A stretch of 64,000 nt of DNA from Parcubacteria group bacterium (GTDB lineage: Bacteria > Patescibacteriota > Minisyncoccia > 2-02-FULL-40-12). A model generated the notes under the pieces. It ran no database searches. It was not told the origin of the DNA and saw only the letters and a program-made list of their open reading frames with translations. The DNA lies in NCBI GenBank assembly GCA_016186395.1, contig JACPLU010000002.1, positions 11,470 to 75,469 on the forward strand, read 5' to 3'. Made by a program: the position numbers and the translations under genes. Below are positions 2,937-28,298 of this stretch, piece by piece; within the stretch, counting starts at the first letter, position 1; each line of letters opens with the position of its first letter.

Positions 2937-3779
2937 ATGACTAAAAAAATACTATTAAGTTCAGTAGTAGTTGTGGCCGCCGCCGCTGTGGTAGTTGGCG
3001 CAACAACTGCTTTCTTTAGCGATACGGAAACCTCAACCGGTAATACGTTTACCGCGGGAGCGATTGACCTTCAAATTGACAATGATTCTTATTACAGTGC
3101 TTTGGATGGACTTGTAAGCTCTGGCACATCTTGGATTCAGAAAGACCTTGAAGATGGCGACTGGTTTTTCAACTTTTCTGACCTTAAACCAGGCGACTGG
3201 GGTGAGGATACGATTTCGCTTCACGTAAACAACAACGATGCGTATGCGTGTGTTGATGTTCGTCTTGATTCAAATGATGATGTTTCATCAACCGAACCAG
3301 AGCTTGAAGATGGTGACGTCCACGTCGATGATAATCCGGAAGGCGAATTGGCAAACCGTGTAAACTTCATCTGGTGGGTAGATGATGGCGATAATGTATG
3401 GGAAGATGACGAACAACTCTTGCCAGCAGGTCCTTTAGGTAATCTAAACGTTGGTCAAGTTGCGACGGTTGCTTTAGCAGAACCAAATAACGGAGGTATC
3501 TTTGGCGGAGCTTTGACTGGTAACCAAACTTACTACATCGGCAAGGCATGGTGCTTTGGTGGTTTTAATGAAGATTGGCTCGATGATCCACCGGCACAAG
3601 ATGACGGTGAAGATGCAGACAGGAGTCCGATTACTCATCCTGTCGTTTGTGACGGTTCTGGTGAGGACAATCAAACTCAAACCGACAGCTTATCTGCAAC
3701 CATCAGTTTTTATGCCGAGCAAGCCAGAAATAACGACGGTTTCGAGTGCTCTGCGCATCTCGGAAACCAACTGGACTAA
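2937..3779 (+). CDS. TasA/camelysin-like secreted protein with SipW-cognate signal peptide
   Basis: N-term MTKKILLSSVVVVAAAAVVVGATTAFFSDTETSTGNTFTAGAIDL (AFFxDxE...FTAGxIDL class); FNFSDLKPGDWGED resembles TasA core; adjacent to SipW-type peptidase. Confidence 0.6.
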   Translation: MTKKILLSSVVVVAAAAVVVGATTAFFSDTETSTGNTFTAGAIDLQIDNDSYYSALDGLVSSGTSWIQKDLEDGDWFFNFSDLKPGDWGEDTISLHVNNNDAYACVDVRLDSNDDVSSTEPELEDGDVHVDDNPEGELANRVNFIWWVDDGDNVWEDDEQLLPAGPLGNLNVGQVATVALAEPNNGGIFGGALTGNQTYYIGKAWCFGGFNEDWLDDPPAQDDGEDADRSPITHPVVCDGSGEDNQTQTDSLSATISFYAEQARNNDGFECSAHLGNQLD

Positions 3780-3967
3780 TTCTAGTTTATCCCACACACA
3801 AAATTTATGTGTGGGATATCAAAGGCGAAAAGAACTTACGATGTTAAAGATAATAAAAAATATGTCATCCGCCTACGCCATACCTACTTCGCTAAAGCTA
3901 CGAAGGTCGAGGTAGGCTTCGGCGAGATGCTCATATTTGCAGCTATTCGCTGCGCTTATAGGCAAAT

Positions 3968-4765
3968 ATGTCAAAAATAACTTTGAGTTTAAGTGTCATT
4001 GCCGCCGCCGCAGTTGTGGTGGTGGGGGCGACAACCGCCTTTTTCAATGACACAGAGACTTCAACTGGAAATGTCTTCACGGCCGGATCAATTGACCTTA
4101 CCGTAGATAGCTTTGGAGCAACTTATAACGGTGAGGATATCGAAACAGCTGGCACAACATGGACTGCTAGAGACTTAACTAATCAGAAGTTCTTTACTTT
4201 TGAGGACATTAAGCCCGGCGATTATGGCACTCGCCATATCAGTGTGCATGCGGATGATAATCCGGCATGGGCATGTCTTCTTGTGACAAACAAGGAAGAT
4301 GACGAAAATGGTCTTAATGAGGCTGAAGGAGATGCGGGTGATGTAACGGAAAACAATGGTGAGCTTTCAAAATATATCAGCGTTTTCGGATGGCAGGATG
4401 ATGACTCTAATGGGAAATATAATCCGGACGACGATGAGACGCCTCTGAAAATTCAAGGAGATCCAGATTTTGATCTGCTTTCCTTCTTCGATGTTTTCTA
4501 CGATCTTGACATCGCCGATTCGCAATCAGAAACAGATGCACTTTCGCCCACTGGCGGTGCATCAACGCGCAATATTGGAGTTGCATGGTGTGTTGGAACG
4601 CAGACAGTTAACCATGATACGGGAGTAATTTCGTGTGACGGCAGTGGCGTACAAGACGATGCTCAATCTGATTCATTCAGCGCGGATGTAGTTTTGTATG
4701 CAGAACAAGTTAGAAATAACCCTAACTTCAAATGTGCAGATGTTGAACTTCCAGAACGAGATTAA
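3968..4765 (+). CDS. TasA/camelysin-like secreted protein paralog with SipW-cognate signal peptide
   Basis: N-term ...VVVVGATTAFFNDTETSTGNVFTAGSIDL; shared C-terminal YAEQxRNN motif with preceding gene. Confidence 0.6.
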   Translation: MSKITLSLSVIAAAAVVVVGATTAFFNDTETSTGNVFTAGSIDLTVDSFGATYNGEDIETAGTTWTARDLTNQKFFTFEDIKPGDYGTRHISVHADDNPAWACLLVTNKEDDENGLNEAEGDAGDVTENNGELSKYISVFGWQDDDSNGKYNPDDDETPLKIQGDPDFDLLSFFDVFYDLDIADSQSETDALSPTGGASTRNIGVAWCVGTQTVNHDTGVISCDGSGVQDDAQSDSFSADVVLYAEQVRNNPNFKCADVELPERD

Positions 4766-4853
4766 TTTGAAGTCTTTTATCCAGCCTCTGCGTGTCAGGG
4801 GCTGGGGATAAAGACCTCAATATACCAACATCGTAAGACGAAGACGGCTTACG

Positions 4854-5399
4854 ATGTTAAGAGAAATGCAAAAATTTAAGAAAATAGCTTCTAGAATATT
4901 GACGGGATTACTAATCGCCTTGGCGGTGGTTTTGGTTGTGCCGATGCTACCGATTCCGGGCAATTTTCAGATAAGAGTGGTCCAGTCAGGGTCAATGGAA
5001 CCGGCGATTAAAACCGGAAGCGTGGTTTTGATTAAACCCTTAAGCAATTACAAAATAGGTGATGTAATCACTTTTGAAGGTAACTTTAAAGACGCAAAAG
5101 GAAAGAAAATTCCGACTACCCACCGAATCACCGATGCCAAAGTTGATGTCGGCACTATTTCTTATCAGACAAAGGGCGATGCTAATGACGATATTGACCG
5201 AAACTTGGTTTCTGCCAACAAAGTTATCGGAAAGGTTTTAGTTTCAGTCCCCTACGCCGGTTATCTGGTGGCGGGAGCCAAGACTGGCTATGGTTTGCTT
5301 GCGATTGTAGTAATTCCCGCCGCTCTTATTATTTTTGATCAGGTCGGCAAAATAGTAAAAGAAATTAAAAAGTCAAAAAATGCCCAGAAAATCGTCTAA
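4854..5399 (+). CDS. sipW: Signal peptidase I, archaeal/eukaryotic (SipW, S26B) type
   Basis: N-terminal TM then VVQSGSMEPAIKTGSVVLIKP (SGSMEP hallmark of SipW-type SPase); C-terminal TM anchor; sits between cognate-signal substrates. Confidence 0.75.
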   Translation: MLREMQKFKKIASRILTGLLIALAVVLVVPMLPIPGNFQIRVVQSGSMEPAIKTGSVVLIKPLSNYKIGDVITFEGNFKDAKGKKIPTTHRITDAKVDVGTISYQTKGDANDDIDRNLVSANKVIGKVLVSVPYAGYLVAGAKTGYGLLAIVVIPAALIIFDQVGKIVKEIKKSKNAQKIV

Positions 5400-5658
5400 A
5401 ATAAAAGGGGTTAAACCTCTTCGATATGCTCAAAGCAAGTCAAGAGTTTTAAACAAAAAAATTAAAGCGAGGAAGGCGCAAAGTTTTTGGCTTGCCCTAA
5501 TTCGTGACTTAATTCATGGAAAGTATAATCGAACCAGTATATTGAAAGGGTTTAACTTTGATACTTCTACTTGGTTCGACAAGCTCACCACAAGATGGTT
5601 TGACATAATTCACCATAAGTCGTTCAGTACAAGTTTTATTAAATCTTTAAAAAAAGTA

Positions 5659-7152
5659 ATGACCTCCCTCGCGATTTTCATGTTGGTTGTCGGAATGAAT
5701 TTTACCGGACTTTGGGCAGTGGGAACAACTGTCGCTTATTTCAATGACATAGAGACGGCGTCTAATAACGAACTCACTGCCGGATATCTTGATTTTTCCT
5801 TGAGTGAATACACATTTGAAAGTTCAATCGGGCTAGATGAGACGATTTCAAAAAACACGGTTTTAGTTAACGGCGGAGGAATGGACTTTCAGTATACTTT
5901 AGAAGCGGAGGAAATAGCTGACGTAGATGGTTTTTGCGGAGCGCTTAATCTGCAGACCAAACTTAACGGAGTAGCACAATATGACGGCAACTTAATGTCG
6001 TTGGCTACTCCGGCTTCGACTGTTTTGGGAACCTGGCAATTCAATATTGAATTACCGGTTGATGAAACTTCATTTATAAACGGCGAAGAATGCCAGTTTG
6101 ATGTTGTATTCAAGGGCTGGCAAACAAATGTCGCTTCTTACGACGATGGTGGGTTTAACGACGAGGAAAGAATGACTTTTACTATTACGGCCGGCAAAAT
6201 GGTGGTTCTAAACGAATTTTTACCAAATCCCGACGGCTTTGCTTATGGTTTTGATTTTGGAAATGACAGCGATGATATGCCCCAAGGTGAATGGGTTGAA
6301 CTGTACAATAATAGCACTGGAGCGATTGACTTGGCCGGCTGGTACTTAAGAGACGCCACAGAAGGCGAGGGCAACAAAACAAACATAACCGCTCTAAATA
6401 CGGCTCCGGCCACAACAACTATTGCCGGCAAAAGTTGGTTAGTAGTTTACATGAACAAAGCCATTTACAATAATACCGGCGATACAGTCAGATTATTTGA
6501 CGACTCAAATACTTTAGTTGACTCGCACACATATGATGTAAGCGATTTCTGTGAAATTGAACCAAGCCCCGGAGCATCAAATTCAGAAGATGCTTTCGAA
6601 GGTGACTGTCCCAATGTTCCACCGAATAAATCGTATGCCAGAATTCCCGATGGTATCGGCGATTGGGTTGACCCTATTCCGACCCCGGGCGGGGTTAATA
6701 TTCTTGAGAATGAAGCAGGCGAGTATATTTACAGCGAGAGCAGTATTAGTTTTGAAGAAATAATGGTTGAACAAGAAGAGGTGTTGATTAACGAGGAAAC
6801 AACAACACCCGGAGAAGAAAATGCTATTGCCGAAGAAGAAGTTATAACCGAGGGAGAGGAAGCGACAGTGACTGAAGAAGAGACTATTGTTGAAGAAGAA
6901 GCAACCAATGATGCCGAAGAAATTACAGTTGAAGAAGAAACTGTAGTGGAAGAAGAAACTATTATTGAGGAAAATGTTGTTGACGGATCACCGGCTGATG
7001 AAGAAGACGTTATAACAGGAGAAAATATTATTATTGAAGAAGACATTGCGGTTGAGGAAGAACCCCCTCAAATAGAAGAAGCCACCGCAGGGCAGGCAGC
7101 TCCAGAATCAGAACTAGAATCAACTGGTAACGAAAACAATGAAACTATTTAA
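5659..7152 (+). CDS. Secreted lamin-tail-domain (LTD) protein with SipW-cognate signal peptide and poly-acidic Glu-rich C-terminal repeats
   Basis: Internal Met start MTSLAIFMLVVGMNFTGLWAVGTTVAYFNDIETASNNELTAGYLDF; LTD signature LNEFLPNPDG...WVELYN...AIDLAGWYLRD; tail EEETIVEEEATNDAEEITVEEETVVEEE. The ORF is open from 5380 (overlapping sipW), so the start is uncertain. Confidence 0.5.
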   Translation: MTSLAIFMLVVGMNFTGLWAVGTTVAYFNDIETASNNELTAGYLDFSLSEYTFESSIGLDETISKNTVLVNGGGMDFQYTLEAEEIADVDGFCGALNLQTKLNGVAQYDGNLMSLATPASTVLGTWQFNIELPVDETSFINGEECQFDVVFKGWQTNVASYDDGGFNDEERMTFTITAGKMVVLNEFLPNPDGFAYGFDFGNDSDDMPQGEWVELYNNSTGAIDLAGWYLRDATEGEGNKTNITALNTAPATTTIAGKSWLVVYMNKAIYNNTGDTVRLFDDSNTLVDSHTYDVSDFCEIEPSPGASNSEDAFEGDCPNVPPNKSYARIPDGIGDWVDPIPTPGGVNILENEAGEYIYSESSISFEEIMVEQEEVLINEETTTPGEENAIAEEEVITEGEEATVTEEETIVEEEATNDAEEITVEEETVVEEETIIEENVVDGSPADEEDVITGENIIIEEDIAVEEEPPQIEEATAGQAAPESELESTGNENNETI

Positions 7153-8326
7153 TAAAACAAAATTTATAAAGTTTGTAACATTCTTCACTCTAGTGGGGAT
7201 GTTTATAGCTGGGCCTTCTTATGCCGCTCCAGATGACTTAGTTGTTAATTTTGAGAGCACACCATTGTTCAACGAAGCTAACTTTTTGCCCGGTAACATC
7301 GTTACCAGAACAGTAGAAGTTACCAATAACACTGACAGCTCCAAAGATATCATTGTTGAATCAATAAATGTTACTGACCCTGACAATTTTGCTAGTGCCT
7401 TAAATCTAGTTATTAGCAAAGGTGATGACGAGCTGTATAACGACACTTTGGCTAATTTCTTTGATGCCGGTGAGGTTAATCTTTCTTCGGTAACTGGTTC
7501 AGGTGGTTCAACTACTTACAGTTTTGCGGTTTCGTTTATTTCTGGTTCTGGCAACGACTATCAGGAAAACGAACTTGGTTTTGATATTGTAGTTGGTTTT
7601 GCGGGCGAGGGTGGAAACGAAGACGGAGAAAACGGCGGTAATGGTGGAGGCGGTGGTGGAAACGGAGGTGGCGGTATTGATGCTTTGACAATTCTTAATG
7701 AAACTGTCCGAGCTTTAGACATAGAAACAACAAGTGTTACTATTGTTTGGGACACAAGCTATCGTTCAACCAGCCGAGTAGTCTATGGCACCAGCCCAAA
7801 TTTATTTGATTTTAATAGCGCTCCAAATTATGGGTATCCGCTCTCTACTGCCGAACTGGACAGCCCCGCATCAACAAATGGAACATTTAATCATTCAGTC
7901 GCCATTACAGGTCTTGCATCGGGTACTACCTACTATTTTAGGGCTATATCTCACGCCTCACCCGATACACTAAGTTTCGAAAAAACCTTTGTTACTCTTG
8001 GTTTAAATAATCAAACGGTTAATGCTGGTGAAACAGGAGAAGTTATTGGGACACAGAATTCTAGCACGGGTAGAACAAACCCAAGCGGGCAATCTGATGT
8101 AGCTGGCGTAGCTGATATAATACAGAATAACTCAATTGACGGAGAAACTAATGGCTCTGGTCAGACCGACAATTCTACTAACAATGAAAAGAGTGCAACA
8201 GAAAACCTCACAGCTAATATCGGTGGAGTATTTAAATCAGTAAGCTGGTGGTGGCTGATTATACTGTTTGCTGTTGTTGTATTTTTAATCATTTACTTAA
8301 ACCGCAAAAAGAAATTAAATTCCTAA
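7139..8326 (+). CDS. Secreted TasA-core-like / FN3-domain protein with poly-Gly tract and C-terminal transmembrane anchor
   Basis: Signal peptide ending SYAAP; NFLPGNIVTRTVEVTNN resembles TasA core; FN3-like TTSVTIVWDT...GTTYYFRAIS; GGNGGGGGGNGGGG; C-term WWWLIILFAVVVFLIIYLNRKKK. Confidence 0.4.
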   Translation: MKLFNKTKFIKFVTFFTLVGMFIAGPSYAAPDDLVVNFESTPLFNEANFLPGNIVTRTVEVTNNTDSSKDIIVESINVTDPDNFASALNLVISKGDDELYNDTLANFFDAGEVNLSSVTGSGGSTTYSFAVSFISGSGNDYQENELGFDIVVGFAGEGGNEDGENGGNGGGGGGNGGGGIDALTILNETVRALDIETTSVTIVWDTSYRSTSRVVYGTSPNLFDFNSAPNYGYPLSTAELDSPASTNGTFNHSVAITGLASGTTYYFRAISHASPDTLSFEKTFVTLGLNNQTVNAGETGEVIGTQNSSTGRTNPSGQSDVAGVADIIQNNSIDGETNGSGQTDNSTNNEKSATENLTANIGGVFKSVSWWWLIILFAVVVFLIIYLNRKKKLNS

Positions 8327-8376
8327 AATTATATATATATAAACCTTTTACAAAAATCTAACCTTCACACCTTTTA

Positions 8377-8450
8377 TGTCCCCGGCAGGAGTTGAACCTG
8401 CAACCTTTTGGTTCGAAGCCAAACGCTCTATCCAATTGAGCTACGGGGAC
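8377..8450 (-). tRNA. tRNA-Arg (anticodon TCG)
   Basis: Reverse complement GTCCCCGTAGCTCAATTGGATAGAGCGTTTGGCTTCGAACCAAAAGGTTGCAGGTTCAACTCCTGCCGGGGACA folds as cloverleaf; anticodon loop CTTCGAA; A20 and A73. Confidence 0.85.
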
Positions 8451-8508
8451 AAATTTAGCTTTATTTAATCCTAAATCTTGCTTTTAAGCAAGATTTAGAG
8501 TTGCCAAA

Positions 8509-11500
8509 TCAAAAATTCTTTTTATCGATAGGAGGCATTTCGCATACCGGAAACTCTTCGGATGGTCTTTCTGGCGGAGGAGTTGCAAAAACACTAACCG
8601 AGGACGAACACCTTGTAGCTCCGTTATTACAGCTTAGTGAGTATACAGTGCTACGGTGGCTAGAGCTTGGAGTAATTGTTTTCTGGCAACTTTGTTTATC
8701 ACAAGTTACCAAACCGCTCCATTCACTGCCCGAAGGAAACCTAGAAGCCTGACAGTCAGAAACATTATTAAGTCTCCACTCTAATTCAGCAGATTCACCT
8801 TGAGGAATTCTGGACGGCACAATGTTTAAGATACAACTTTTTGTTCCCCTTTCTTCAACTATAAGATTAACCCGACAAATGGCCGAACTGTTTTGGACGT
8901 TAGCCGCTGTTGCCCTAATTTGAGCATTATAATTTCCCGCTCTAAGATTAGAAATATTTATTCCAATAACGCTTTTCACTATGCGATCTTGTTCAATATG
9001 ATTTGTGTTCCCAATAATGCTTGTTTTATTAATTACGCCCAGATTCAACCAACTGGCATTTTCAACTTTCTGAAAATTTAATTGATCATGTCTAGCCTCA
9101 TTTGATCCTCCAGTTATATCAAGGTATAAATCTTCTACTGTCGGCGGTGGATCTCCTATTTGATAGTTAAAATTAAGAACAGATGAACCTTCTTTAGAGG
9201 AGCACCCTAAGACGGCTTCATTGGGTTCCTTATCTTGGTCAACATTAATAACCGCATCACAGGTTGCCTGATTTTCATTTCCTCTCACTAGCATTGTATA
9301 TTTTGTTGTTTTATCAGGTGAAACAATTGTATTACCAGAAGAAACGTTATTAATTTTAATAATCCGACTATCAAGATTATTACTTATCTCCCCTTCTTCT
9401 GCTCCGGTAGATGCCCAAGCTAAAGTGGAAAACTGGCCATTGATAATATTTATTGGGTTAGCCGTTAGGTTACAAGAGATGCTCTTATAAACAAACACAG
9501 CTTTTACTTTATCGTTGTTACCTACATTAGAAACAAGCGATGGAATCTTGTCACTCTCTGTGAATAATTTATCTGTCCTGCCATTTGGATGCTCGATAAA
9601 GATCTCTATATGATTAAAGACTGCTTTTGAATTTCCGGGAAAGAAATCATCAGCTGGCCTTTGGATTGTCCAGCTACCGGTTGCATAACCATCTTGATAT
9701 CCGCTTTGAGGCCAAGGTACAATATTTTGACTTTCAGTTTTAGTTGGAGTTACAACATGCCATTGATTCTTAAATACCCCGGACTGATTTTCTGCTGAGT
9801 CTATCCTAGCCTCAACTCTAAGTGAAGCGGTTTTCGTTTTTCCAGCCTCGTCAACTTTTAAAATTACATTGCAAACAGCTTGACCCTGAATATTTCTAAC
9901 ATTAGTTGCTTTAACCAAAACTCTCGCATCATAAATTCCAGCTTTAAGACCAGTTATATTAACTTGGGCTGATTTTTTAACCAAATTATTTGTCTGATTG
10001 GTGTTACCGGTTATCTTTAAAGGCAGGGCTCCAACAAGACTAAGCCAATTGGCTTGATCCAATTTTTCCATAGAAAAACCTTCATGAGGTATGTATTGAG
10101 AGACAATCGGACCATCTTCAATTTTTAACAATAAATCTTGAACAGACGGATTAACTCCACCCGCAGTAGCTTGAAATTGAAGGTCAGTACAACTTAAAAT
10201 CGGCAAGTCTGGAACCGGAAACGGTAAAACATCTACTCCACAAAGGGCTTTTTGGTCACCGCTTGTAACTTCAGTCGGCAATTTAAACCCCGGCAAAAAG
10301 AATCTTGGTGAATAAACTTTACTGGTACTAAGCGGTGGAGTTGCACCTAAAGGACCTTTCCACTGATAAACCCCATTCCCTCCATTAGCAGTAAAATTAA
10401 CTTGTTCAAATTGAAGAATTCTTTGTTTATCTGAAGTACAGGTTAAAATTTGATTTTTGACAGTAATCCTTATGGTTACTTCGGTTTCACTTCGCCCATA
10501 ACCACTTCTGCTTAATTGATCGCCAGTATTGTATCTCACCCCCGTATCCTGTATGTTCGGAAACTCTAAATAGACCGGACCGGCAAACTTAACTTTGGCT
10601 TCGTAAACCCCCGGCGCTAAGTCCCTTACACTGTCACTTAATACAAACTTAACTAGTTGATCTTGAGTATAAACAGAAAATGGATGGCTGGGGTTGGCTG
10701 TACATTTATTACCAGCTGATCGCTCACAATTAGTTAATTTAGCTACTTGGGGAAACTCGACTGTCGAAATCCAACCACCTCCCTGCTTGTATTCAATTGA
10801 ACCTTCCTGTTTCCAACCGGCTATTACTTCCGGGTTAACTGATTGATCCAAAAATGGTTTGGCCAAATTTTTAATAGAAGTTTGTAAGTTAGGAAGCGTG
10901 GTTCCACTACCCTTAATAACCGTACCCTCAACCACCAAAGGTTGAGCGTTAAGATTGGTAACCCCGCAGTTTCCATAAACCCAGCCAATTAGTACATTAG
11001 TTAAGGGATCATTTATGCCCGGGGTCATGCCTTCATGCTTAACAGAACCTTTTAAATCAAAAATATTCCATCCATCGTGAAGTGCTGTATTAGTAATAAA
11101 ACTGGCTTCGGCTGATTTGTAATTTTGAGTGTCTAAAATATTGCTAATATTTCCAGCCAGACCTCGCGGTCGGTTAATGCTTTGCCCATCATACCTACCA
11201 TAACCCCACTGGGCCGGTAATTTTTCAAAACCTTGTTCATAAAATTTAAGAGGTAAAGATGTGTCAGTGGCTCGAAATAAAAAAGTGGCTTTTCGTGAAG
11301 ATAATTCGCAAGCAGACCAGCCAATATCTCTACCAAAATATAAATAATCTAAATTAAAAGTAAGGACTTTGCCATTTTCTAAAATTGCTTTATCTCCCCC
11401 ATTTCCTCCATTATCTGAATTTATTCGCCAGAGGGCATGAACATTTCCATTTGTATGGGTTTGAGCTTTTATAACCCAACTTCCAGCAGGCACATTGTTT

Positions 11501-12621
11501 AAAACTACTGGATTTTCATGACCGGAAATCTGGGAACTATAATATGGCTGTTTACTAACATCTCCATCCGGACCGTAAAGAGCAAAACTGACTCCAACTT
11601 GTTCTGGCCAAAGTTTATCTTCAATATTTGTAAAAACCTTAATCGTACTTACTCTACTTAGTACCGTCTTGTAAACAAGAACTATTTTAATTTTTTCGTC
11701 CTTATTCGTTTGTAAACTAAATTCCTGACCGCCGCCGCAGTTTAAAAAACACTGATCGTTTTTCCAAAATTCCATATATTCATACCTGGCTTCAGTACCT
11801 GGAAACTTTTCGTCGTTCGGAGGATGGGCTTGCCAAAGACCTATCTTATATCCAGATTTATAATTATCCGGATTAGAATCCGGCCAAGAAACACTTTTTT
11901 CCTGTTCCGTAATAGTCGGTGTTATAACACGCCATGAATCTATAAAATTCCCGGCCCGTGTTTGATTATCAACACTTGCTTCAACTCGCAACTTTGCAAA
12001 AAGTGTCGGAGGCTGAACAACAAATTCTAATTCTGGTATCGCACAAATGTCAGGATCGTCATATAGATCAGTATGAGCAATAGCACACAACGAAAGTGTG
12101 TGTCTACCAGGAGAAAGATTGGCAACAGAAATAGCACAATTAGCGGAAGGAACGGAACAATCAAATGAATAAAGATACTCCTTTTCAGTACCAGATCTAT
12201 CAGCGCAAGTTCTATCTTGTCCTATCTGAATTCTGGTAAGCGGGACAACCCCGCTTCCGTTTGTCCCGTTATCAATTTTATATTGAGCTCGGTCAGTCAA
12301 CCGAGAAATCCCACCAGTTTCATTGGGCACATCAGCAACTAAAATTGCCGCATCATAACGAAAAACGGCTGGTGCTGGACAAACCTGCCCCTGATTATAA
12401 ATCCCGCCATGGGCAGTACCGTCCATAAAAAGCTGTGAGCCGTCAGTAGACTGAACCAGTTTTTCAATCTCAATTCCGGCCTTTACCTTAATAGGCCCCG
12501 ACGGTTGACTTTGGGCTTCAACATTAGAAAAAACTAAAAGCAGACCAATTAATACAATTGAAATCCCAAATGGAAAGTATAGTTTTCTTAAACCCTTGAT
12601 CATCTTACAAACTGTAGACAA
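8509..12621 (-). CDS. Giant (1370 aa) secreted multi-domain surface protein with internal duplication; putative adhesin
   Basis: Signal peptide ...FSNVEAQS; two related ~150-aa segments (SVDNQTRAGNFIDSWRVITPTITEQEKSVSWP... vs RIDSAENQSGVFKNQWHVVTPTKTESQNIVPWP...); Cys pairs and beta-rich composition. Confidence 0.5.
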   Translation of the reverse strand: MSTVCKMIKGLRKLYFPFGISIVLIGLLLVFSNVEAQSQPSGPIKVKAGIEIEKLVQSTDGSQLFMDGTAHGGIYNQGQVCPAPAVFRYDAAILVADVPNETGGISRLTDRAQYKIDNGTNGSGVVPLTRIQIGQDRTCADRSGTEKEYLYSFDCSVPSANCAISVANLSPGRHTLSLCAIAHTDLYDDPDICAIPELEFVVQPPTLFAKLRVEASVDNQTRAGNFIDSWRVITPTITEQEKSVSWPDSNPDNYKSGYKIGLWQAHPPNDEKFPGTEARYEYMEFWKNDQCFLNCGGGQEFSLQTNKDEKIKIVLVYKTVLSRVSTIKVFTNIEDKLWPEQVGVSFALYGPDGDVSKQPYYSSQISGHENPVVLNNVPAGSWVIKAQTHTNGNVHALWRINSDNGGNGGDKAILENGKVLTFNLDYLYFGRDIGWSACELSSRKATFLFRATDTSLPLKFYEQGFEKLPAQWGYGRYDGQSINRPRGLAGNISNILDTQNYKSAEASFITNTALHDGWNIFDLKGSVKHEGMTPGINDPLTNVLIGWVYGNCGVTNLNAQPLVVEGTVIKGSGTTLPNLQTSIKNLAKPFLDQSVNPEVIAGWKQEGSIEYKQGGGWISTVEFPQVAKLTNCERSAGNKCTANPSHPFSVYTQDQLVKFVLSDSVRDLAPGVYEAKVKFAGPVYLEFPNIQDTGVRYNTGDQLSRSGYGRSETEVTIRITVKNQILTCTSDKQRILQFEQVNFTANGGNGVYQWKGPLGATPPLSTSKVYSPRFFLPGFKLPTEVTSGDQKALCGVDVLPFPVPDLPILSCTDLQFQATAGGVNPSVQDLLLKIEDGPIVSQYIPHEGFSMEKLDQANWLSLVGALPLKITGNTNQTNNLVKKSAQVNITGLKAGIYDARVLVKATNVRNIQGQAVCNVILKVDEAGKTKTASLRVEARIDSAENQSGVFKNQWHVVTPTKTESQNIVPWPQSGYQDGYATGSWTIQRPADDFFPGNSKAVFNHIEIFIEHPNGRTDKLFTESDKIPSLVSNVGNNDKVKAVFVYKSISCNLTANPINIINGQFSTLAWASTGAEEGEISNNLDSRIIKINNVSSGNTIVSPDKTTKYTMLVRGNENQATCDAVINVDQDKEPNEAVLGCSSKEGSSVLNFNYQIGDPPPTVEDLYLDITGGSNEARHDQLNFQKVENASWLNLGVINKTSIIGNTNHIEQDRIVKSVIGINISNLRAGNYNAQIRATAANVQNSSAICRVNLIVEERGTKSCILNIVPSRIPQGESAELEWRLNNVSDCQASRFPSGSEWSGLVTCDKQSCQKTITPSSSHRSTVYSLSCNNGATRCSSSVSVFATPPPERPSEEFPVCEMPPIDKKNF

Positions 12622-13132
12622 GATTTACCAAAACATTTTTTTGTAAATCCATACTCGCGCTAAAAACAAAAGTTTCATTCTTAGAACCCACACCGTATAA
12701 AGCTACAAAGTCCTTATCACTGGTTTTATTGGTAATTTGATAAGCAGATGTCTTTAGAAAGTTTTCATAGATTGCTAAATTCTCGTTCAGAGTTTTTTTG
12801 GAAACAAATTGTACAGAAACCAAATTTTTAGAAGAGTCAAGATATTTCTGTTTAGAAGAACCTAAAATCTGAACTCCGGCTTCAATCGGCACGTTAGATG
12901 GAAATTCTTTTTTAATAGTTTCTATATTTAGCGGCAAGGAAGAAACTAAAACTTGGCTAGGTGAGGATAGACTCGGCATAGGAGTAGGCTGTTTTTTGAA
13001 ACGAGACACAAAAACGCTTCTAAATACAAAGGCGGCCAAACCAATTAATACAATTATTAACAAGATTAAAAAAGTCTTTTTATTGGAATTCTGATTCTGA
13101 CTCACGTTGATTTGATTTTCAATTTCAGGCAT
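12605..13132 (-). CDS. Hypothetical membrane-anchored protein
   Basis: Single N-terminal TM (FLILLIIVLIGLAAFVF) then a soluble domain; 17-nt overlap with upstream giant gene. Confidence 0.3.
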   Translation of the reverse strand: MPEIENQINVSQNQNSNKKTFLILLIIVLIGLAAFVFRSVFVSRFKKQPTPMPSLSSPSQVLVSSLPLNIETIKKEFPSNVPIEAGVQILGSSKQKYLDSSKNLVSVQFVSKKTLNENLAIYENFLKTSAYQITNKTSDKDFVALYGVGSKNETFVFSASMDLQKNVLVNLVYSL

Positions 13133-13182
13133 CTGTATAATCCGGACTCAAGAACTATTTTTGATAGCCCCTAAATTCTGAT

Positions 13183-14634
13183 TTATTTAAAATAGGTGTC
13201 ATAACACCATTGAACGCGTGGCGCAAAAGATCTTATTTGAGCATACGTATTTTCTGAAAATGTTTCATTTGGCTTATCAACGTCACTACAAACGTTGTGA
13301 GGCGCTGGACCACTCCATAAACATTCCCAATTCTTAGTCGGTTCATTATTGTTCGGACAAATAGAACAGCTTTCACTGCCACTTTCAGTACAGGCTGAAC
13401 TTTTTTCACAAACTGATTTTCCGCCCAAGAACCCAGCGGCAATGTCTCTAACATCTTTTGGGCCCGAACCGCAAACGGCTATTAAGTTTTGACTATTAAT
13501 CCAGGCTCCGGCTAAATTGATAATTTTTTGAGTGTTATCTATATTTGTTAGCCAACTTTCACCAATACTTTCATTTATTCCCACCAACGATTTTAATTGG
13601 TTTGCCTTAGCAACCGTAAATTGAAAGATTCCGAAACGATTTTCGTTCTCTACAAGAGGATTACCGCCGGATAAACGGGCGGCTAAAGATTTTAATAAAC
13701 TCATTGATTCAACTTGAGTCAACCCATTAATTTGAGGAATTCTTAAATTTTCGAACAATTTATTAACCTGATTTGGACTGCATTCATCTTCGATAGAGCC
13801 GCATATCGGTAAATTTGAATCCGAACATTGAGCACCCAAACAAGTTCCACATTGAAGCGGATCTTGAACTTTTACAGTACAGACCGCTGTTTGATTTTCA
13901 TTCCCTCTTTTAACTTCAGCAGTAAATTTACCTTTAGGAAGACTGACTTTTAATGGGTTGCCGTTTCGAGAAACTTTTACTGTTCCGTCTGAATTTTGTA
14001 TACTCCAATGATATTCCCCCTCTTGACCACCTTCCGCCGTTAAATCCACTTCCACTTCCGTTTGATTTGAACTTTCCAAATATTTTGTTTGATCTTTCGG
14101 CTTACAAATTAGTTCGCCAGGAACACCGCCGTCTCCTTCACCGCAATAAATTGGGAACGTATACCATTTGGCCGGCACCTCTCCAAAGTCAGAAGAAAAA
14201 CCGACATATTTTGAAACTTGAGATAAAGCTGAATTTACAATTAACCACGAACCAAGAATCAAAGCTACGCCGATACCAGTCGTTCGCAAAAGTCCAATTC
14301 CCTTAGCCACCCAGATAGTACTTCCTGAACCGAACAAAATCATTGCACCCCCTGCAACAACAAAAACTATTGTAAGAGGCGGGGTGACATCTTTCAAAAT
14401 AAAATCAGAAATATTCTGACCAAGAACAAAAAAATGACAAGTACTACATTTTTCATTTGGTGTACCTTTCTGATCCTGCCGACCACAAGGTACTAACGGT
14501 GCAGCCCAAACAAATTGAACTACAAAAGAAAATAAAATCAGCGATACAAAAAGAATCGCAAAAAATGCAATCAAATAATGATTCCTAGAATAAAATTCCT
14601 GAATCATCTTTAAATTCATTATACAAAATGCCAC
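13183..14634 (-). CDS. Membrane protein with N-terminal multi-TM module and large Cys-rich extracellular domain
   Basis: Hydrophobic segments at N-terminus; many Cys (CSTCHFF, CGEGDGG, CGTCLGAQC, CSICPNN) in C-terminal 350 aa. Confidence 0.35.
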   Translation of the reverse strand: MAFCIMNLKMIQEFYSRNHYLIAFFAILFVSLILFSFVVQFVWAAPLVPCGRQDQKGTPNEKCSTCHFFVLGQNISDFILKDVTPPLTIVFVVAGGAMILFGSGSTIWVAKGIGLLRTTGIGVALILGSWLIVNSALSQVSKYVGFSSDFGEVPAKWYTFPIYCGEGDGGVPGELICKPKDQTKYLESSNQTEVEVDLTAEGGQEGEYHWSIQNSDGTVKVSRNGNPLKVSLPKGKFTAEVKRGNENQTAVCTVKVQDPLQCGTCLGAQCSDSNLPICGSIEDECSPNQVNKLFENLRIPQINGLTQVESMSLLKSLAARLSGGNPLVENENRFGIFQFTVAKANQLKSLVGINESIGESWLTNIDNTQKIINLAGAWINSQNLIAVCGSGPKDVRDIAAGFLGGKSVCEKSSACTESGSESCSICPNNNEPTKNWECLWSGPAPHNVCSDVDKPNETFSENTYAQIRSFAPRVQWCYDTYFK

Positions 14635-14658
14635 AAAAAAGAGTTATCCCCTCACACT

Positions 14659-14693
14659 AAAACCCCGCCCCTGAGTTCAGGGGCGGGGTTTGT
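14659..14693. terminator. Bidirectional Rho-independent terminator (perfect GC hairpin)
   Basis: aaaccccgcccctgagttcaggggcggggttt with U-rich flank on minus-strand transcript after 3D-domain gene stop. Confidence 0.5.
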
Positions 14694-14714
14694 AAATTCT
14701 CCTTATATCTTCTT

Positions 14715-15308
14715 TTATATCAATTCAATCACTATCTGTTTGACTCCAAATTGTTTAGCTTCATTACGACTGGGAAACCATATATCAACGCGGTTAGAAT
14801 ACCGCTTATGCATTCTATCCTCTACCACGAAAACTTTGTCACCATAGACTTCTGGAATTCTAATCAAAGTACCTATTGGCAAGAAGTTTGCCGCTACAAC
14901 CCCGTCCCTTACATGAGTTCCAGACGCAGTAATAAACGGTGTGCTATCGGTTTGATCAGGGGTTGAAGAATAAGCTGTTGCTACTACATTGTATTGTCTT
15001 TTTACAACTTCCTTAATCTGAATATTTTTCTGAACAGCCAAAGGAGACTGAATAGACAACAAACTATTTCCATAAATAAACTTACTAAAACTCTGTGGTT
15101 CGGGTTCAAGAATTTGATCACTACTATCTGCTGTACCTGAATATGAGTCGGCGCTAGTTGCTGAAAATAGACTGGCTAGCAAGGAGCCAGAATTACCAGT
15201 TATGGTTAAAAGCCCTGCTTGAGCCGAAACTGGGGATAATGAAAATAAACTAAATGCTATAATAAATGTGGCGATAAAACGCCTTAAAATATTCATTGAA
15301 TTGCGCAC
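14715..15308 (-). CDS. 3D-domain (RlpA/MltA-like double-psi beta-barrel) secreted protein
   Basis: Signal peptide; C-terminal VVEDRMHKRYSNRVDIWFPSRNEAKQFG fits the 3D (Asp-Asp-Asp) domain pattern. Confidence 0.45.
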   Translation of the reverse strand: MRNSMNILRRFIATFIIAFSLFSLSPVSAQAGLLTITGNSGSLLASLFSATSADSYSGTADSSDQILEPEPQSFSKFIYGNSLLSIQSPLAVQKNIQIKEVVKRQYNVVATAYSSTPDQTDSTPFITASGTHVRDGVVAANFLPIGTLIRIPEVYGDKVFVVEDRMHKRYSNRVDIWFPSRNEAKQFGVKQIVIELI

Positions 15309-15571
15309 GTTTTCTAAGCCCTTCTACCCTTGTCACTTTGTGACAAGGAAGCTAGAAAATATGCGTGGTTCTTGCAGAAATGGCCTAATTTAGGCCTTTT
15401 TTGCTTACCCTCACACCATTTTTGGGTGTGTTTGGGCAACTAAAAACCGCTTTTGGCGGTTCTAATACTTTATGATCTAATTATAGCAAATGGGTAGAAA
15501 AAGTCAACTCCGCCCTTTAAGCTCAAGGGTGGAGTCAAATTCTTATTTTTCCCTTGTTTTGGCCGACTAAT

Positions 15572-16627
15572 CTAGAAAATACGGGGGAAATAACTTCTAG
15601 TTGGAGTTGGTCTTGTGGTTACGGTCGGACAAATAAACTCACAGTTTGGACCAGTGCGACCCACATAACTACCGTCTGGACATCGTCTTAAATCTTGAGG
15701 GCAATAAGTTGTTTGCGTAGGCGTTGGGGATGTAGTTTGAGTAGAAGTAGGCGTTGGACTTGGACTAGTTTTTTTACCACAGTATAAAAGAATATTTTTT
15801 AACATTTGAGAATTACTTCCGTCGTCCAAACCTATCTGGTAATATCCGCCGTCCTCATCATCAATAAATGAATTTACATCAGAAAATAAAACCACAGGCC
15901 CGGACCCAGCACCCAAAAAATTCCTATCTATAATCGTTACCGAAGGAGCGTCTCTATATGGAGAACCTGGAACATAAGCATTACGTGCCAGTATTTTTGT
16001 ATACGAAGGCATAGAGGTATACCATCCGGGATAATTTTGGACAAAAGAACTAACTCCATTTAATAACGGATGGCCGATTGATGTAATAAGCCTGTTGTAA
16101 TCTGGTCCATCATCAGTACCAGTTACAGATACATTGAACGGACTAACAAAACTCCTATTAACTATGGAGGCACTTCCGTCAGTTTCATCCGTATAAGTAT
16201 CGTTATCAGTAAGAAGAACCGCACAACCGCCGCCCAACACAAAATTCTTTAACGCTGTTTGCTCAGATAAAGAAAGAGGATCAACTGCATGAGCATTATC
16301 TTTTGCAACCCCCACAAAAAGTATATCCAATGAATTCAACCCAAAAGATGTAAGAATTTCAAGCTCCGAATAAGTTGCAAAAGGGAAATTTTCAGATATG
16401 ACTTGCCTTGCTTTTTCCATTCCAGATCCTTGAGCTAATGCAAAACTTTCTCCTCTTGTTTCATCCCAGGTTCCAATTTTTAAATTCAAATTCGATAAAA
16501 CCGCTTTCCCAGTAGAAAGAGAAACATTAATTTGTTGGTTGCCAATAAGACCCTGCTGAAAAGCAACGCCTAAAACAATCGAACCGACGATAGCGATAGT
16601 GACTGTGAGCCCAATAGTTCTATCCAT
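15572..16627 (-). CDS. Secreted protein with Thr/Pro-rich linker and C-terminal Cys-containing module
   Basis: N-terminal TM/signal; PSPTPTSTQTTSPTPTQTT linker; C-term CPQDLRRCPDGSYVGRTGPNCEFIC. Confidence 0.35.
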   Translation of the reverse strand: MDRTIGLTVTIAIVGSIVLGVAFQQGLIGNQQINVSLSTGKAVLSNLNLKIGTWDETRGESFALAQGSGMEKARQVISENFPFATYSELEILTSFGLNSLDILFVGVAKDNAHAVDPLSLSEQTALKNFVLGGGCAVLLTDNDTYTDETDGSASIVNRSFVSPFNVSVTGTDDGPDYNRLITSIGHPLLNGVSSFVQNYPGWYTSMPSYTKILARNAYVPGSPYRDAPSVTIIDRNFLGAGSGPVVLFSDVNSFIDDEDGGYYQIGLDDGSNSQMLKNILLYCGKKTSPSPTPTSTQTTSPTPTQTTYCPQDLRRCPDGSYVGRTGPNCEFICPTVTTRPTPTRSYFPRIF

Positions 16628-26251: not shown

Positions 26252-26745
26252 TGCATACAATCTCTGAACTCAATAATAAATGGTGGTATAGGTTAATAAA
26301 AGTCGGCTACCTACTTTTGATTATGGCGGCTTGTGTAATATCTATTGCAGTTGCCTTCGAAGACGTGGGCACTTATCAGACAGATTATTTAGTAGTATGC
26401 AACTATGGGAATAAGAGTACTTTTATTGCTAATAAGGACAAGGATATTTGGAATATCCCACAGTATTATGACTATAGCGAAAGCTTGGCCAAACTTCCTG
26501 ACTCAACCAAAATACAATTGCAATCAGCTTGTGGCATATCCCAAGCAGAAATGAATGCCAAGTTTGAAAATCCTAATGATAATAAAAAGCTATTCGATTT
26601 AACCGAAACAAAAGTAAATACCACGAGCTATTGGAGTGCAATACTATGGTCTATTCTGTCCATAATTATTACCTTCGCAATCGCAGAGATAATTAGAAGG
26701 ATTTTTTACTACATTGTTTTAGGTAAAGTTAAACCTGTGAAATGA
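26251..26745 (+). CDS. Small membrane protein (2 TM), island cargo
   Basis: TM segments near both ends; translationally coupled between the excisionase-like gene and the recombinase. Confidence 0.3.
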   Translation: MHTISELNNKWWYRLIKVGYLLLIMAACVISIAVAFEDVGTYQTDYLVVCNYGNKSTFIANKDKDIWNIPQYYDYSESLAKLPDSTKIQLQSACGISQAEMNAKFENPNDNKKLFDLTETKVNTTSYWSAILWSILSIIITFAIAEIIRRIFYYIVLGKVKPVK

Positions 26746-28298
26746 AAGCAATAATTCTAGCCAGAGTTTCTAAGGAAGATCAGCTTGAAGGGCAATCAAT
26801 ACCTGCCCAGCTTGCTCGTTCTCGACAATGGTGTAAAGACAAGAAACTCGTTATCAAAAGCGAATACCAGTTTGACGAGTCCTCAACCAAAGATCAGAGA
26901 AAAAAGTTTGAGAAAGTGATTGACGAGATCCGACAATCTAAAGAACCTATTGCTCTCGTAGTAGAAACGATTGACCGACTTCAAAGAAGTTTTAAGGAGT
27001 CCGTTATGTTGGACGAGTTTAGGAAAAGCGGAAAGCTGGAAATCCATTTCCTGCGAGAAGGTCTTGTCGTTAGCGATAAATCAAATAGCTCAGAGCTATT
27101 GCGTTGGGATATGGGTGTGATGTTCGCAAGGAGCTATGTTTTACAGCTCAGTGATAATGTTAAGCGAAGCATTGAGGGCAGACTACGAAACGGCCAATGG
27201 ATTGGTCGGCCACGTATGGGTTACATCAACATAACCAAAGAGGACGGAACTCGGGATATTGTTCAAGACCCCGAGCGAGCTCATTTCATACGCAAAATCT
27301 TTGAGTATTACATCGCAGGAACTTCTTTGAACTTGCTATCCAAGAGAATGAAAAAGGAAGGGTTCAGGAGTCCTCAAAATAAGACTGTGACCGCAGGCGG
27401 TATCCATCGAATACTAATGGACTCATTCTATTACGGAATAATGGTTGTTAAGGGCAAAGAGTATCCGCACCGCTACACGCCGATTATCTCTCGTGATACT
27501 TTTCTTAAGGCTCAAGAAATCAGAACAGGCTGGAAGAAAACGCCATACAAACACAAAAGTAAACCCTACGCTCTAAAAGGGATTATTAAATGTGCTATTT
27601 GCGGTTGCACGGTTACGCCAGAGTTTAAGAAAGGCAAATACATTCTTTACGCCTGCACAAATTACAAGAAGGTCCACGAGAAGAAAACCTATATCCCCGA
27701 AGCAGACCTGCTTAAAGCCGTTTATAAGGCCTTGAAGCCGCTTGAGTTGCCTCAGAACAAGATAGACAAGCTCGTAGAGGACCTGCGGACATACAGCGAA
27801 GCTAAGACCATCTATCACGATGAGGCTATTCGGACACTAGATCGTAAGTATGCCGAGAGCCAAATCAGAATTGATAAACTTTTGGACTTACTGCTAGCCA
27901 GTAGTATTACTCAAGAGATGTATGACACGAAGTTTAAGAAAGAAAAAGAATTGCAGACTGATATTCTCATCCAAAAAGAAGATCACACCAACGCCGATAA
28001 AGAGTTTCACATCACTGCTTCTACTGTATTAAACCTAGCAAAACGAGCAACCGAGATAATTAAGAGTTCGGAACCAGAAGAAAAAAGGCAATTTATGAGC
28101 TATCTACTTCAGAACTGCCAATTAAATGGCAGAAACCTAGAGTTTACCTTACGAAATCCCTTCAACTTGATAGCTAAATACTCTAGCTATCCCACATTGC
28201 AGCCCCGACGGGATTTGAACCCGTGTTGCAGGAATGAAAATCCTGTGTCCTGGACCAGGCTAGACGACAGGGCCATAACTTTAAAAATTTTACCCTAA
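26742..28298 (+). CDS. Large serine recombinase (resolvase/invertase catalytic domain + recombinase domain + zinc ribbon)
   Basis: N-term MKAIILARVSKEDQLEGQSIPAQ (catalytic Ser in RVS); C-terminal CAICGC...YACTNYKK zinc ribbon; 518 aa; ORF reads through the opposite-strand tRNA-Glu. Confidence 0.8.
   Translation: MKAIILARVSKEDQLEGQSIPAQLARSRQWCKDKKLVIKSEYQFDESSTKDQRKKFEKVIDEIRQSKEPIALVVETIDRLQRSFKESVMLDEFRKSGKLEIHFLREGLVVSDKSNSSELLRWDMGVMFARSYVLQLSDNVKRSIEGRLRNGQWIGRPRMGYINITKEDGTRDIVQDPERAHFIRKIFEYYIAGTSLNLLSKRMKKEGFRSPQNKTVTAGGIHRILMDSFYYGIMVVKGKEYPHRYTPIISRDTFLKAQEIRTGWKKTPYKHKSKPYALKGIIKCAICGCTVTPEFKKGKYILYACTNYKKVHEKKTYIPEADLLKAVYKALKPLELPQNKIDKLVEDLRTYSEAKTIYHDEAIRTLDRKYAESQIRIDKLLDLLLASSITQEMYDTKFKKEKELQTDILIQKEDHTNADKEFHITASTVLNLAKRATEIIKSSEPEEKRQFMSYLLQNCQLNGRNLEFTLRNPFNLIAKYSSYPTLQPRRDLNPCCRNENPVSWTRLDDRAITLKILP
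28200..28274 (-). tRNA. tRNA-Glu (anticodon TTC)
   Basis: Reverse complement GGCCCTGTCGTCTAGCCTGGTCCAGGACACAGGATTTTCATTCCTGCAACACGGGTTCAAATCCCGTCGGGGCT closely parallels bacterial tRNA-Glu; anticodon loop TTTTCAT. Confidence 0.8.

Follow-up and report, generated by a model that had tools for sequence, protein, structure and literature searches.

Cassette organization

We analyzed a 64-kb stretch of DNA (hereafter, the window) and focused on positions 2937–8326, where five co-directional open reading frames (ORFs) encode two proteins related to the fibre protein TasA (P1 and P2), a putative signal peptidase of the SipW class, and two further proteins, P4 and P5 (Table 1). All five ORFs are found where the initial annotation, made from the sequence alone, had placed them, and the N-termini that it quoted for three of the proteins are exact. 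It had also described the genome as resembling those of the Candidate Phyla Radiation (CPR), in agreement with the finding that P1 is 100% identical to a protein from a metagenome-assembled genome named 'Parcubacteria group bacterium'. The ORF of P4, which starts with ATG in a different frame, overlaps the stop of the peptidase ORF by 20 nt, and the overlap between P5 and P4 is 14 nt. The region 2937–8326 is one conserved five-gene CPR cassette. The CPR (Patescibacteria) are mostly uncultured epibionts whose host attachment is poorly understood, and their surface filaments are usually ascribed to type IV pili.

Within the whole window, the SipW-cognate motif occurs in P1, P2, and P4 only, and the S-G-S-M-x-P box occurs once, in the cassette peptidase. 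This restriction to the cassette within 64 kb indicates that the pattern is not due to chance. The peptidase lies within 3 kb of the three proteins carrying a TIGR04088-type signal, and no other such proteins are present in the window. Neither a LepB-type box, a sortase motif, nor an LPxTG motif was found there.

Table 1. Positions of the cassette genes, their predicted segments, and adjacent elements in the window
Feature	Position	Strand	Description
P1	2937–3779	+	280 aa; TasA-superfamily subunit as judged from sequence and model, likely major shaft subunit
P1 signal peptide	2937–3011	+	residues 1–25; predicted SipW cut A25|F26
P1 donor-strand-like segment	3012–3071	+	residues 26–45; FFSDTETSTGNTFTAGAIDL
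Hairpin	3788–3818	+	perfect 11-bp stem (UCCCACACACA...UGUGUGUGGGA) directly 3' of the P1 stop, without a T-run
P2	3968–4765	+	265 aa; second TasA-superfamily subunit
Peptidase	4854–5399	+	181 aa; putative SipW-class (S26B, archaeal/endoplasmic reticulum-type) signal peptidase I
Catalytic candidates	Ser47 4992–4994, His90 5121–5123, Asp109 5178–5180	+	SGSMEP is residues 45–50
P4	5380–7152	+	590 aa; candidate tip/nucleator subunit
P4 basic N-extension	5380–5658	+	residues 1–93; may not be translated
P4 signal h-region	5659–5736	+	predicted cut A119|Y120
P4 donor-strand-like segment	5737–5799	+	YFNDIETASNNELTAGYLDF, after A119|Y120
P4 compact P5-like core	5827–6108	+	approximately residues 150–243
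P4 lamin-tail domain	6190–6534	+	residues 271–385
P4 acidic Glu-rich tail	6730–7152	+	
P5	7139–8326	+	395 aa; candidate membrane-anchored acceptor or base
P5 ordinary signal peptide	residues 1–29	+	SYA|AP
P5 compact TasA-like core, no donor strand	7235–7600	+	residues 33–154
P5 FN3-like domain	7688–7999	+	residues 184–287, after a Gly-rich linker
P5 C-terminal transmembrane helix	8240–8299	+	residues 368–387, after a disordered linker; a basic tail follows
tRNA-Arg	8376–8451	minus	between P5 and the convergent 1370-aa ORF

Relationship of P1 and P2 to TasA

The initial annotation had recognized SipW-cognate signals in three proteins, and P1, P2, and P4 indeed passed the corresponding model TIGR04088 (29.9, 30.1, and 21.6 bits, respectively; cutoff 19), with no match in P5. 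The Pfam TasA model PF12389 (cutoff 22.5) matched residues 3–50 of P1 and P2 with 33.3 and 25.7 bits, respectively; P4 gave a sub-cutoff score of 16.5 bits, and P5 gave no match. In P1, the donor-strand-like segment is followed by a jelly-roll core with four invariant cysteines. P2 is 41% identical to P1, possesses the same four cysteines, and has its predicted cut at A24|F25. P1 contains the motif DLKPGD and P2 the motif DIKPGD, as expected from the earlier description of TasA-like cores in two of the proteins.

P1 was modelled with AlphaFold2 using 38 homologues; the model had a mean pLDDT (predicted local distance difference test) value of 78.3 and consists of a signal helix, a disordered segment (residues 21–40), and a nine-strand sandwich. 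The best match of this model in the PDB, by two methods, was the TasA fibre, with approximately 16% identity between P1 and TasA in the structural alignment. In hhalign comparisons, the profile of the P1 family aligned with the sequence of TasA alone (identical to residues 28–261 of 8AUR) over 212 columns (89.8%, E = 1.8e-6), in an alignment that spans NLSNLKPGD/NFSDLKPGD as well as the last strand, NKYQGNSIKLQFSFEATQ versus NQTQTDSLSATISFYAEQ. The same profile compared with 110 Bacillales TasA/CalY sequences gave 96.9% and an E-value of 1.8e-10. P1 is thus predicted to contain a TasA-like jelly-roll core. The score with the TasA equivalog model NF046066, on the other hand, was 13.6 bits against a cutoff of 450. 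From the sequence comparisons, we assign P1 and P2 to the TasA superfamily, although not as TasA orthologues, and the predicted fold also places them in this superfamily.

The CPR family has features of its own. Four cysteines (C105, C206, C238, and C271 in P1 numbering) are invariant, whereas the median number of cysteines in the Bacillales TasA/CalY proteins is 0. A WWxDDGDNV motif, which may bind calcium, is also characteristic of the family, and N36 and K84 are invariant. None of the 120 P1 homologues examined has a C-terminal transmembrane helix. Many paralogues in other CPR genomes carry additional C-terminal VWA or SpaA-like (PF19403) domains.

Signal peptidase

The 181-aa protein with the SGSMEP sequence had been assigned to the archaeal-type signal peptidases of the SipW class. 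The assignment was borne out by a score of 97.7 bits with TIGR02228 (archaeal-type signal peptidase I; cutoff 51.85), which places the peptidase above the curated cutoff of an S26B model. With the Bacillus SipW equivalog model NF046067, the score (105.7 bits) was under the cutoff of 190. From these scores, the peptidase is of the same class as Bacillus SipW without being its equivalog. Hydrophobic segments are present at both its N- and C-terminus.

An alignment of 75 CPR homologues showed that S47 (in SGSMEP), H90 (in THR), D109 and N111 (in GDAN), and D115 are invariant or nearly so. By this alignment, the residue set corresponds to the Ser-His-Asp pattern of the endoplasmic reticulum/archaeal-type enzymes, not to a Ser-Lys dyad. 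The catalytic roles were assigned by correspondence to Ser47, His87, and Asp106 of B. subtilis SipW, which we take to be the equivalent residues; these were reportedly the subject of a mutagenesis study of B. subtilis SipW by Tjalsma and colleagues in 2000.

Predicted cleavage site and putative donor strand

Mature TasA starts at A28 with the sequence AFNDIKS (PDB 8AUR). Residues 28–38 of TasA are the donor strand, which completes the next subunit (PMC9674648), and the N-terminus of TapA resembles this strand (PMC10151520). Alignment with mature TasA predicted the cuts A25|FFSD in P1, A24|FFND in P2, and A119|YFND in P4. The conserved motif is therefore predicted to straddle the cut site and to lie mostly in the mature protein. 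The initial annotation had supposed cleavage after AFFxD; the aligned start of mature TasA puts the predicted cut inside the motif instead, and this shift does not refute the module. According to a published study (PMC10269814), Phe at position P2' of the substrate blocks LepB and makes SipW necessary, and the aromatic residues at P1' and P2' of the CPR proteins fit the same reason.

The N-terminal segment of P1 is homologous to residues 28–46 of TasA. Mature positions +1 to +20 are the best-conserved region of the P1 family and hold nine of its 34 invariant columns. The concentration of invariant columns at the mature N-terminus suggests a structural role, as for the Bacillus camelysins (PMC10151520), and the disorder of this segment in the monomer model is as would be expected for a donor strand.

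These data bear on whether P1 and P2 polymerize at all. They might instead be SipW-processed secreted or surface proteins that act singly, as carbohydrate-binding jelly-roll adhesins or as a camelysin-type protease, with the cassette serving as no more than a dedicated secretion set. We consider this unlikely. The conservation peaks at the mature N-terminus and not at a binding pocket, and that segment aligns with the experimentally defined donor strand of TasA. Moreover, neither HExxH nor another metal-site motif is conserved, and the only highly conserved histidine is His96 (at least 90%). A camelysin-type protease function was ruled out by this absence of a conserved metal-binding motif, and the protease label of CalY is itself a probable misidentification (PMC11580942).

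If P1 and P2 do exchange donor strands, the exchange might also be locked covalently. BsaA has been described with an N35/E56/K74 triad and an exchange-and-lock mechanism (PMC11580942), and a similar isopeptide bond in P1 would join N36 of the donor strand to K84 in LKPGD of the acceptor, with a nearby acid such as Asp48 catalyzing its formation. N36 and K84 are invariant in the CPR family, D48 is at least 90% conserved, and both motifs are kept in 111 of 120 homologues. However, 64 of 120 Bacillales TasA/CalY proteins have these Asn and Lys motifs as well, and TasA itself has no cross-link, so that a bond cannot be predicted from the Asn and Lys residues alone. In a comparison that did not include an alignment of BsaA, no conserved Glu was seen where BsaA has one, and the N-E-K triad is largely confined to Clostridia according to a published survey (PMC11580942). 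Such a lock therefore seems very unlikely.

Candidate tip protein P4

The presence of a lamin-tail domain in the third substrate had been claimed previously, and P4 passes PF00932 with 60.2 bits (cutoff 34.3), or 63.4 bits when the isolated segment is used. The only other matches of P4 in the NCBIfam and Pfam scans were TIGR04088 and the sub-cutoff PF12389. Profile comparisons (hhalign) aligned P4 with the P1 family in the donor strand only (95.5%, 35 columns) and with the TasA family over TasA residues 23–81 (89.4%). P4 thus displays a TapA-like pattern, in which a SipW-type N-terminus mimicking the TasA donor strand is attached to a different body encoded in the same operon. P4 is an analogue of TapA, not a member of its family.

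The first 93 residues of P4 form a very basic extension, and the probability of such an open frame by chance is 0.004. The orthologue in the most closely related locus, L079 (L079:7153–8631), lacks this extension and starts with a short normal signal, for which reason translation of P4 may start at M94. The extension resembles the linker of the SipW::P4 fusions described below and looks like their remnant or precursor.

Candidate base protein P5

P5 had been described as a fourth protein with a TasA-like core and an FN3 domain. The FN3 fold is well supported, with a score of 33.9 bits, above the cutoff, for PF16656 (Pur_ac_phosph_N, FN3-like); the TasA-like core received moderate support. The P5 core aligned by hhalign with residues 45–226 of the TasA family (64.9%, E = 6e-5), which comprise the core but not the donor strand, and the mature N-terminus of P5 begins three residues ahead of the aligned domain. 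In the AlphaFold2 model of P5, blocks within residues ~51–130 have mean pLDDT values of 89–98, and past the core the model shows the Gly-rich linker, the FN3 domain, a disordered linker of 70 residues, and a helix at the C-terminus (residues 370–393).

The case for a TasA-like core in P5 is strengthened by its homology to the N-domain of P4. A hidden Markov model (HMM) of the P5 N-domain, searched against 3778 ORFs from related loci, recovered the P5 orthologues first and then P4-class proteins; down to a full-sequence E-value of about 0.1, all but one of these further matches were P4-class, located just past the donor-strand motif, with a best E-value of 1.5e-4. Direct comparison of the P4 and P5 N-domains by hhalign gave 89.2% over 94 columns (E = 2.2e-6). 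At the level of sequence profiles, these results showed a second, compact TasA-like domain to be common to P4 and P5. The isolated N-domains of P4 and P5 matched no meaningful Pfam family at E-values up to 10. Among 120 P5 homologues, none has a SipW-type motif, 116 have a C-terminal transmembrane helix, and 116 keep the domain order of core, spacer, FN3, linker, and transmembrane helix.

Conservation across CPR

A pattern scan using one genome per species yielded 483 confirmed stretches, from which 78 loci of distinct CPR species were taken. They represent Paceibacteria/Parcubacteria subgroups, Woese-, Levy-, Gottesman-, and Chisholmbacteria, CPR3, and others. In 73 of the 78 loci, a SipW gene follows one to four TasA-like paralogues on the same strand, which answers the synteny check suggested for the cassette; the remaining five end no more than ~3.2 kb past their last TasA-like gene, so that this order holds wherever a contig end does not truncate the locus. 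The number of TasA-like paralogues is one in 5 loci, two in 30, three in 33, and four in 10.

The gene for a P4-like protein takes two forms. It is separate and located after SipW in 31 of the 78 loci, and in another form, also found in 31 loci, a SipW ORF of at least 340 aa is an in-frame SipW::P4-like fusion. The order in the 20 fusion loci with a recognizable motif is SipW, transmembrane segment, basic linker, transmembrane segment, (S/A)YFND, and P4-like domain. Such a fusion would combine, in one polypeptide, a signal peptidase and the substrate that it cuts, and its topology would place the catalytic site and the cut site together on the outer face. Examples are L006:12448–14016 and those in L007, L024, L033, L041–L045, L052, L058, L067, and L074. 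For P5-like genes farther downstream, BLAST identified 20 loci and the HMM 22.

In the closest relative, L079, whose P1 is 75% identical, a glycosyltransferase gene and rpsL/rpsG lie on either side of the same five genes. The conserved order and the occurrence of the same five genes between different flanks demonstrate that the cassette is a discrete, vertically widespread CPR module, to which the neighboring gene in our window is incidental.

Proposed assembly mechanism

By analogy with known systems, we consider it probable that the cassette encodes an extracellular fibre of the TasA type, assembled by donor-strand exchange, with P4 at the tip, P1 and P2 in the shaft, and P5 at the base. That a fibre forms is suggested by homology to the Bacillus, Clostridium, and archaeal systems. 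The proteins would first be exported by Sec and then cut by the peptidase at A|FF(S/N)D. The cut would leave aromatic residues at P1' and P2', which are expected to be handled poorly by LepB-type enzymes, and would free the N-terminal donor strand. Entry of the freed strand into the β-sandwich of the next subunit would polymerize P1; P2 would be either a minor component of the shaft or an alternative subunit. P4, which has no anchor, in a TapA-like manner would fill the groove of the first subunit and nucleate the fibre. As the donor of the first strand, P4 would be located at the distal end, where it would show its lamin-tail domain and acidic tail and possibly serve as an adhesin. P5 would accept but could not donate a strand; it would cap the end of the fibre with the free donor strand and tether it to the membrane via a stalk composed of FN3 and the linker. 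We infer that this is the sole arrangement that consistently uses both a donor-only-type and an acceptor-only-type protein.

Several points weigh against this proposal. The PF12389 match in P1 and P2 is confined to the N-terminal residues mentioned above. No PDB sequence is matched by P1 or by the profile of its family, and thus the link to TasA required a fold search and profile-profile comparison. The structure predictions are of monomers only. For P4, no match to a TapA/YqxM model was found in the NCBIfam and Pfam scans, and its true start is uncertain, as stated above for M94. The link of P5 to TasA is moderate (64.9% only), its N-domain has practically no similarity to the CPR P1 family (hhalign, 11.7% over 22 columns, 0.1%), and the fold search with the full P5 model was filled by FN3 matches, which do not inform on the N-domain. 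P5-like genes occur in only about one quarter of the loci, so that such an anchor is not universal.

The last two points raise the possibility that P5 is not the base. It might be an independent anchored FN3 surface protein or an assembly platform that has no more than the operon in common with the fibre, and the fibre might be anchored by uncleaved signal peptides or by the wall. The low frequency of P5-like genes (20–22 of 78 loci) and the weak link of P5 to the TasA core favor this possibility, and it has been proposed that BsaA oligomers are held through the most recently added subunit, whose signal peptide stays uncleaved (PMC11580942). On the other hand, the P5 core is homologous to that of P4, a protein with a donor strand; mature P5 starts exactly where the TasA core begins past the donor strand; and the domain order is kept in nearly all homologues, as described above. 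We regard a role of P5 outside the base as possible, although the less probable assignment.

Returning to a fibre with P4 at the tip and P5 at the base, a more specific proposal can be put forward tentatively. CPR may carry a self-contained, chaperone-free donor-strand-exchange pilus composed of a P4 tip with a variable adhesion domain, a disulfide-bearing P1/P2 shaft, and an acceptor-only anchored P5, and the fused peptidase-tip proteins of many lineages may cleave themselves to start the fibre. The cassette, whose conservation extends over hundreds of CPR species, provides a small gene set for a candidate second, energy-independent fibre. If the proposal is true, the fibre would join type IV pili as another class of filament on CPR surfaces, and it would be one possible means of attaching to hosts.

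Comparison with known systems

The tapA-sipW-tasA system of B. subtilis (8AUR) likewise encodes a dedicated endoplasmic reticulum/archaeal-type signal peptidase with its substrates. The B. subtilis and CPR substrates have the N-terminus A|xF(N/S)D...F.AG.LDL in common, and TasA and the CPR subunits share the jelly-roll core, the LKPGD strand, and the last strand YQ/TQ...F.F..Q. In both systems, the TasA-like donor N-terminus also occurs on a minor protein whose body is of another type: TapA in Bacillus and P4 here. The CPR system differs from that of Bacillus in that its subunits have the four invariant cysteines and WWxDDGDNV, its gene order is subunits, peptidase, and accessory proteins, and its P4 bears a lamin-tail domain and is no TapA homologue. 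In addition, the anchored P5 without a donor strand has no described counterpart in Bacillus, and SipW-P4 fusions exist in many CPR species.

The B. cereus sipW operon is also among the closest systems. The sipW-bsaA-bsaB-bsaC operon of C. perfringens resembles the CPR cassette in that SipW is accompanied by two paralogues of the TasA type and by an accessory protein of larger size; donor-strand exchange at the cell surface has been proposed as its mode of assembly. The accessory adhesion-type domain is VWA in C. perfringens, whereas it is the lamin-tail domain here and VWA in some CPR paralogues. An N-E-K isopeptide lock and export dependent on type IV pilus proteins are features described for C. 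perfringens BsaA. The archaeal bundling pili AbpA/AbpB (7UEG) have no dedicated peptidase gene beside the abp operon (PMC9245690), and the sequence relation of the CPR subunits to AbpA/AbpB and to the Sulfolobus threads (7PNB) is far remoter than that to bacterial TasA. The chaperone-usher pili (Fim/Pap) are an analogy only: acceptor-only, donor-plus-acceptor, and terminal subunits set the tip, shaft, and base, but these proteins are unrelated in sequence, depend on a chaperone in the periplasm and an usher in the outer membrane, and belong to diderm cells.

Homologues of TasA (PF12389) in Patescibacteria were already included in a genome survey (PMC9245690), and close relatives are named 'TasA family protein' or 'CalY family protein' by NCBI. 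According to a survey of the BsaA/TasA family (PMC11580942), its operons contain multiple paralogues, and neighboring genes encode signal peptidase as well as proteins with fibronectin and SpaA domains. A full-text literature search found no paper treating the CPR cassette itself. As far as we found, the compact core shared by P4 and P5 (with and without a donor strand), the anchored P5, the cysteine-bearing subunits, and the frequent SipW::P4 fusion are apparently undescribed. Our contribution is therefore the operon architecture, comprising the putative P4 tip, the anchored P5 without a donor strand, and the SipW::P4 fusions, and not a new kind of system.

Non-coding elements and neighboring genes

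When the 196-nt spacer between P1 and P2 was folded (positions 3775–3970), a z-score of −4.09 was obtained, and none of 200 shuffled sequences folded equally well. The hairpin in this spacer may be an mRNA-stabilizing element or a partial terminator that favors P1 over the downstream genes. We infer that its location after the P1 stop fits a higher expression of the shaft subunit. A promoter scan was no better than the shuffles, with 14 sites found against 15.7 expected.

Upstream of the cassette lies an M48 peptidase gene, with a non-coding stretch of 1.3 kb. This region (1630–2936), directly upstream of P1, has no ORF of at least 90 aa, which is unusual given how compact CPR genomes are. Nested inverted repeats are present in it, for example 1956–1991/2015–2050 and 2624–2649/2654–2679, and the folding of 2265–2936 far exceeds that of shuffled sequences (z = −7.65). 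A promoter-like near-consensus site at 2237–2264 is followed by a terminator-like hairpin at 2354–2382. Comparison of the 1.3-kb region with Rfam gave only sub-threshold hairpin matches and no family. It has no phage match and no second copy in the window, and it is not conserved in L079 or the other loci.

The initial annotation had pointed to a 1370-aa adhesin-like protein next to the cassette and had linked the two functionally. The protein is indeed adjacent, but no adhesin domain was matched; its best Pfam match was Y_Y_Y, below the cutoff (E = 0.013), and no NCBIfam match above cutoff or PDB sequence match was found. The functional link did not hold, as the protein has no homologue in the 78 related loci and is absent beside the L079 cassette. 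The ORF, which is on the opposite strand beyond the tRNA-Arg gene, was thus rejected as a part of the module. The 1370-aa protein contains an internal duplication, with segments starting RVEASVDNQ... and RVEARIDSAENQ... Five consecutive ORFs (1370, 175, 483, 197, and 351 aa) with N-terminal hydrophobic segments occupy 8509–16627 on the minus strand. None of the five gave a significant Pfam match, and the block may encode lineage-specific surface proteins. Elsewhere in the window, a tRNA-Glu gene (28199–28274, minus strand) lies within the 3' end of the plus-strand ORF 26742–28298.

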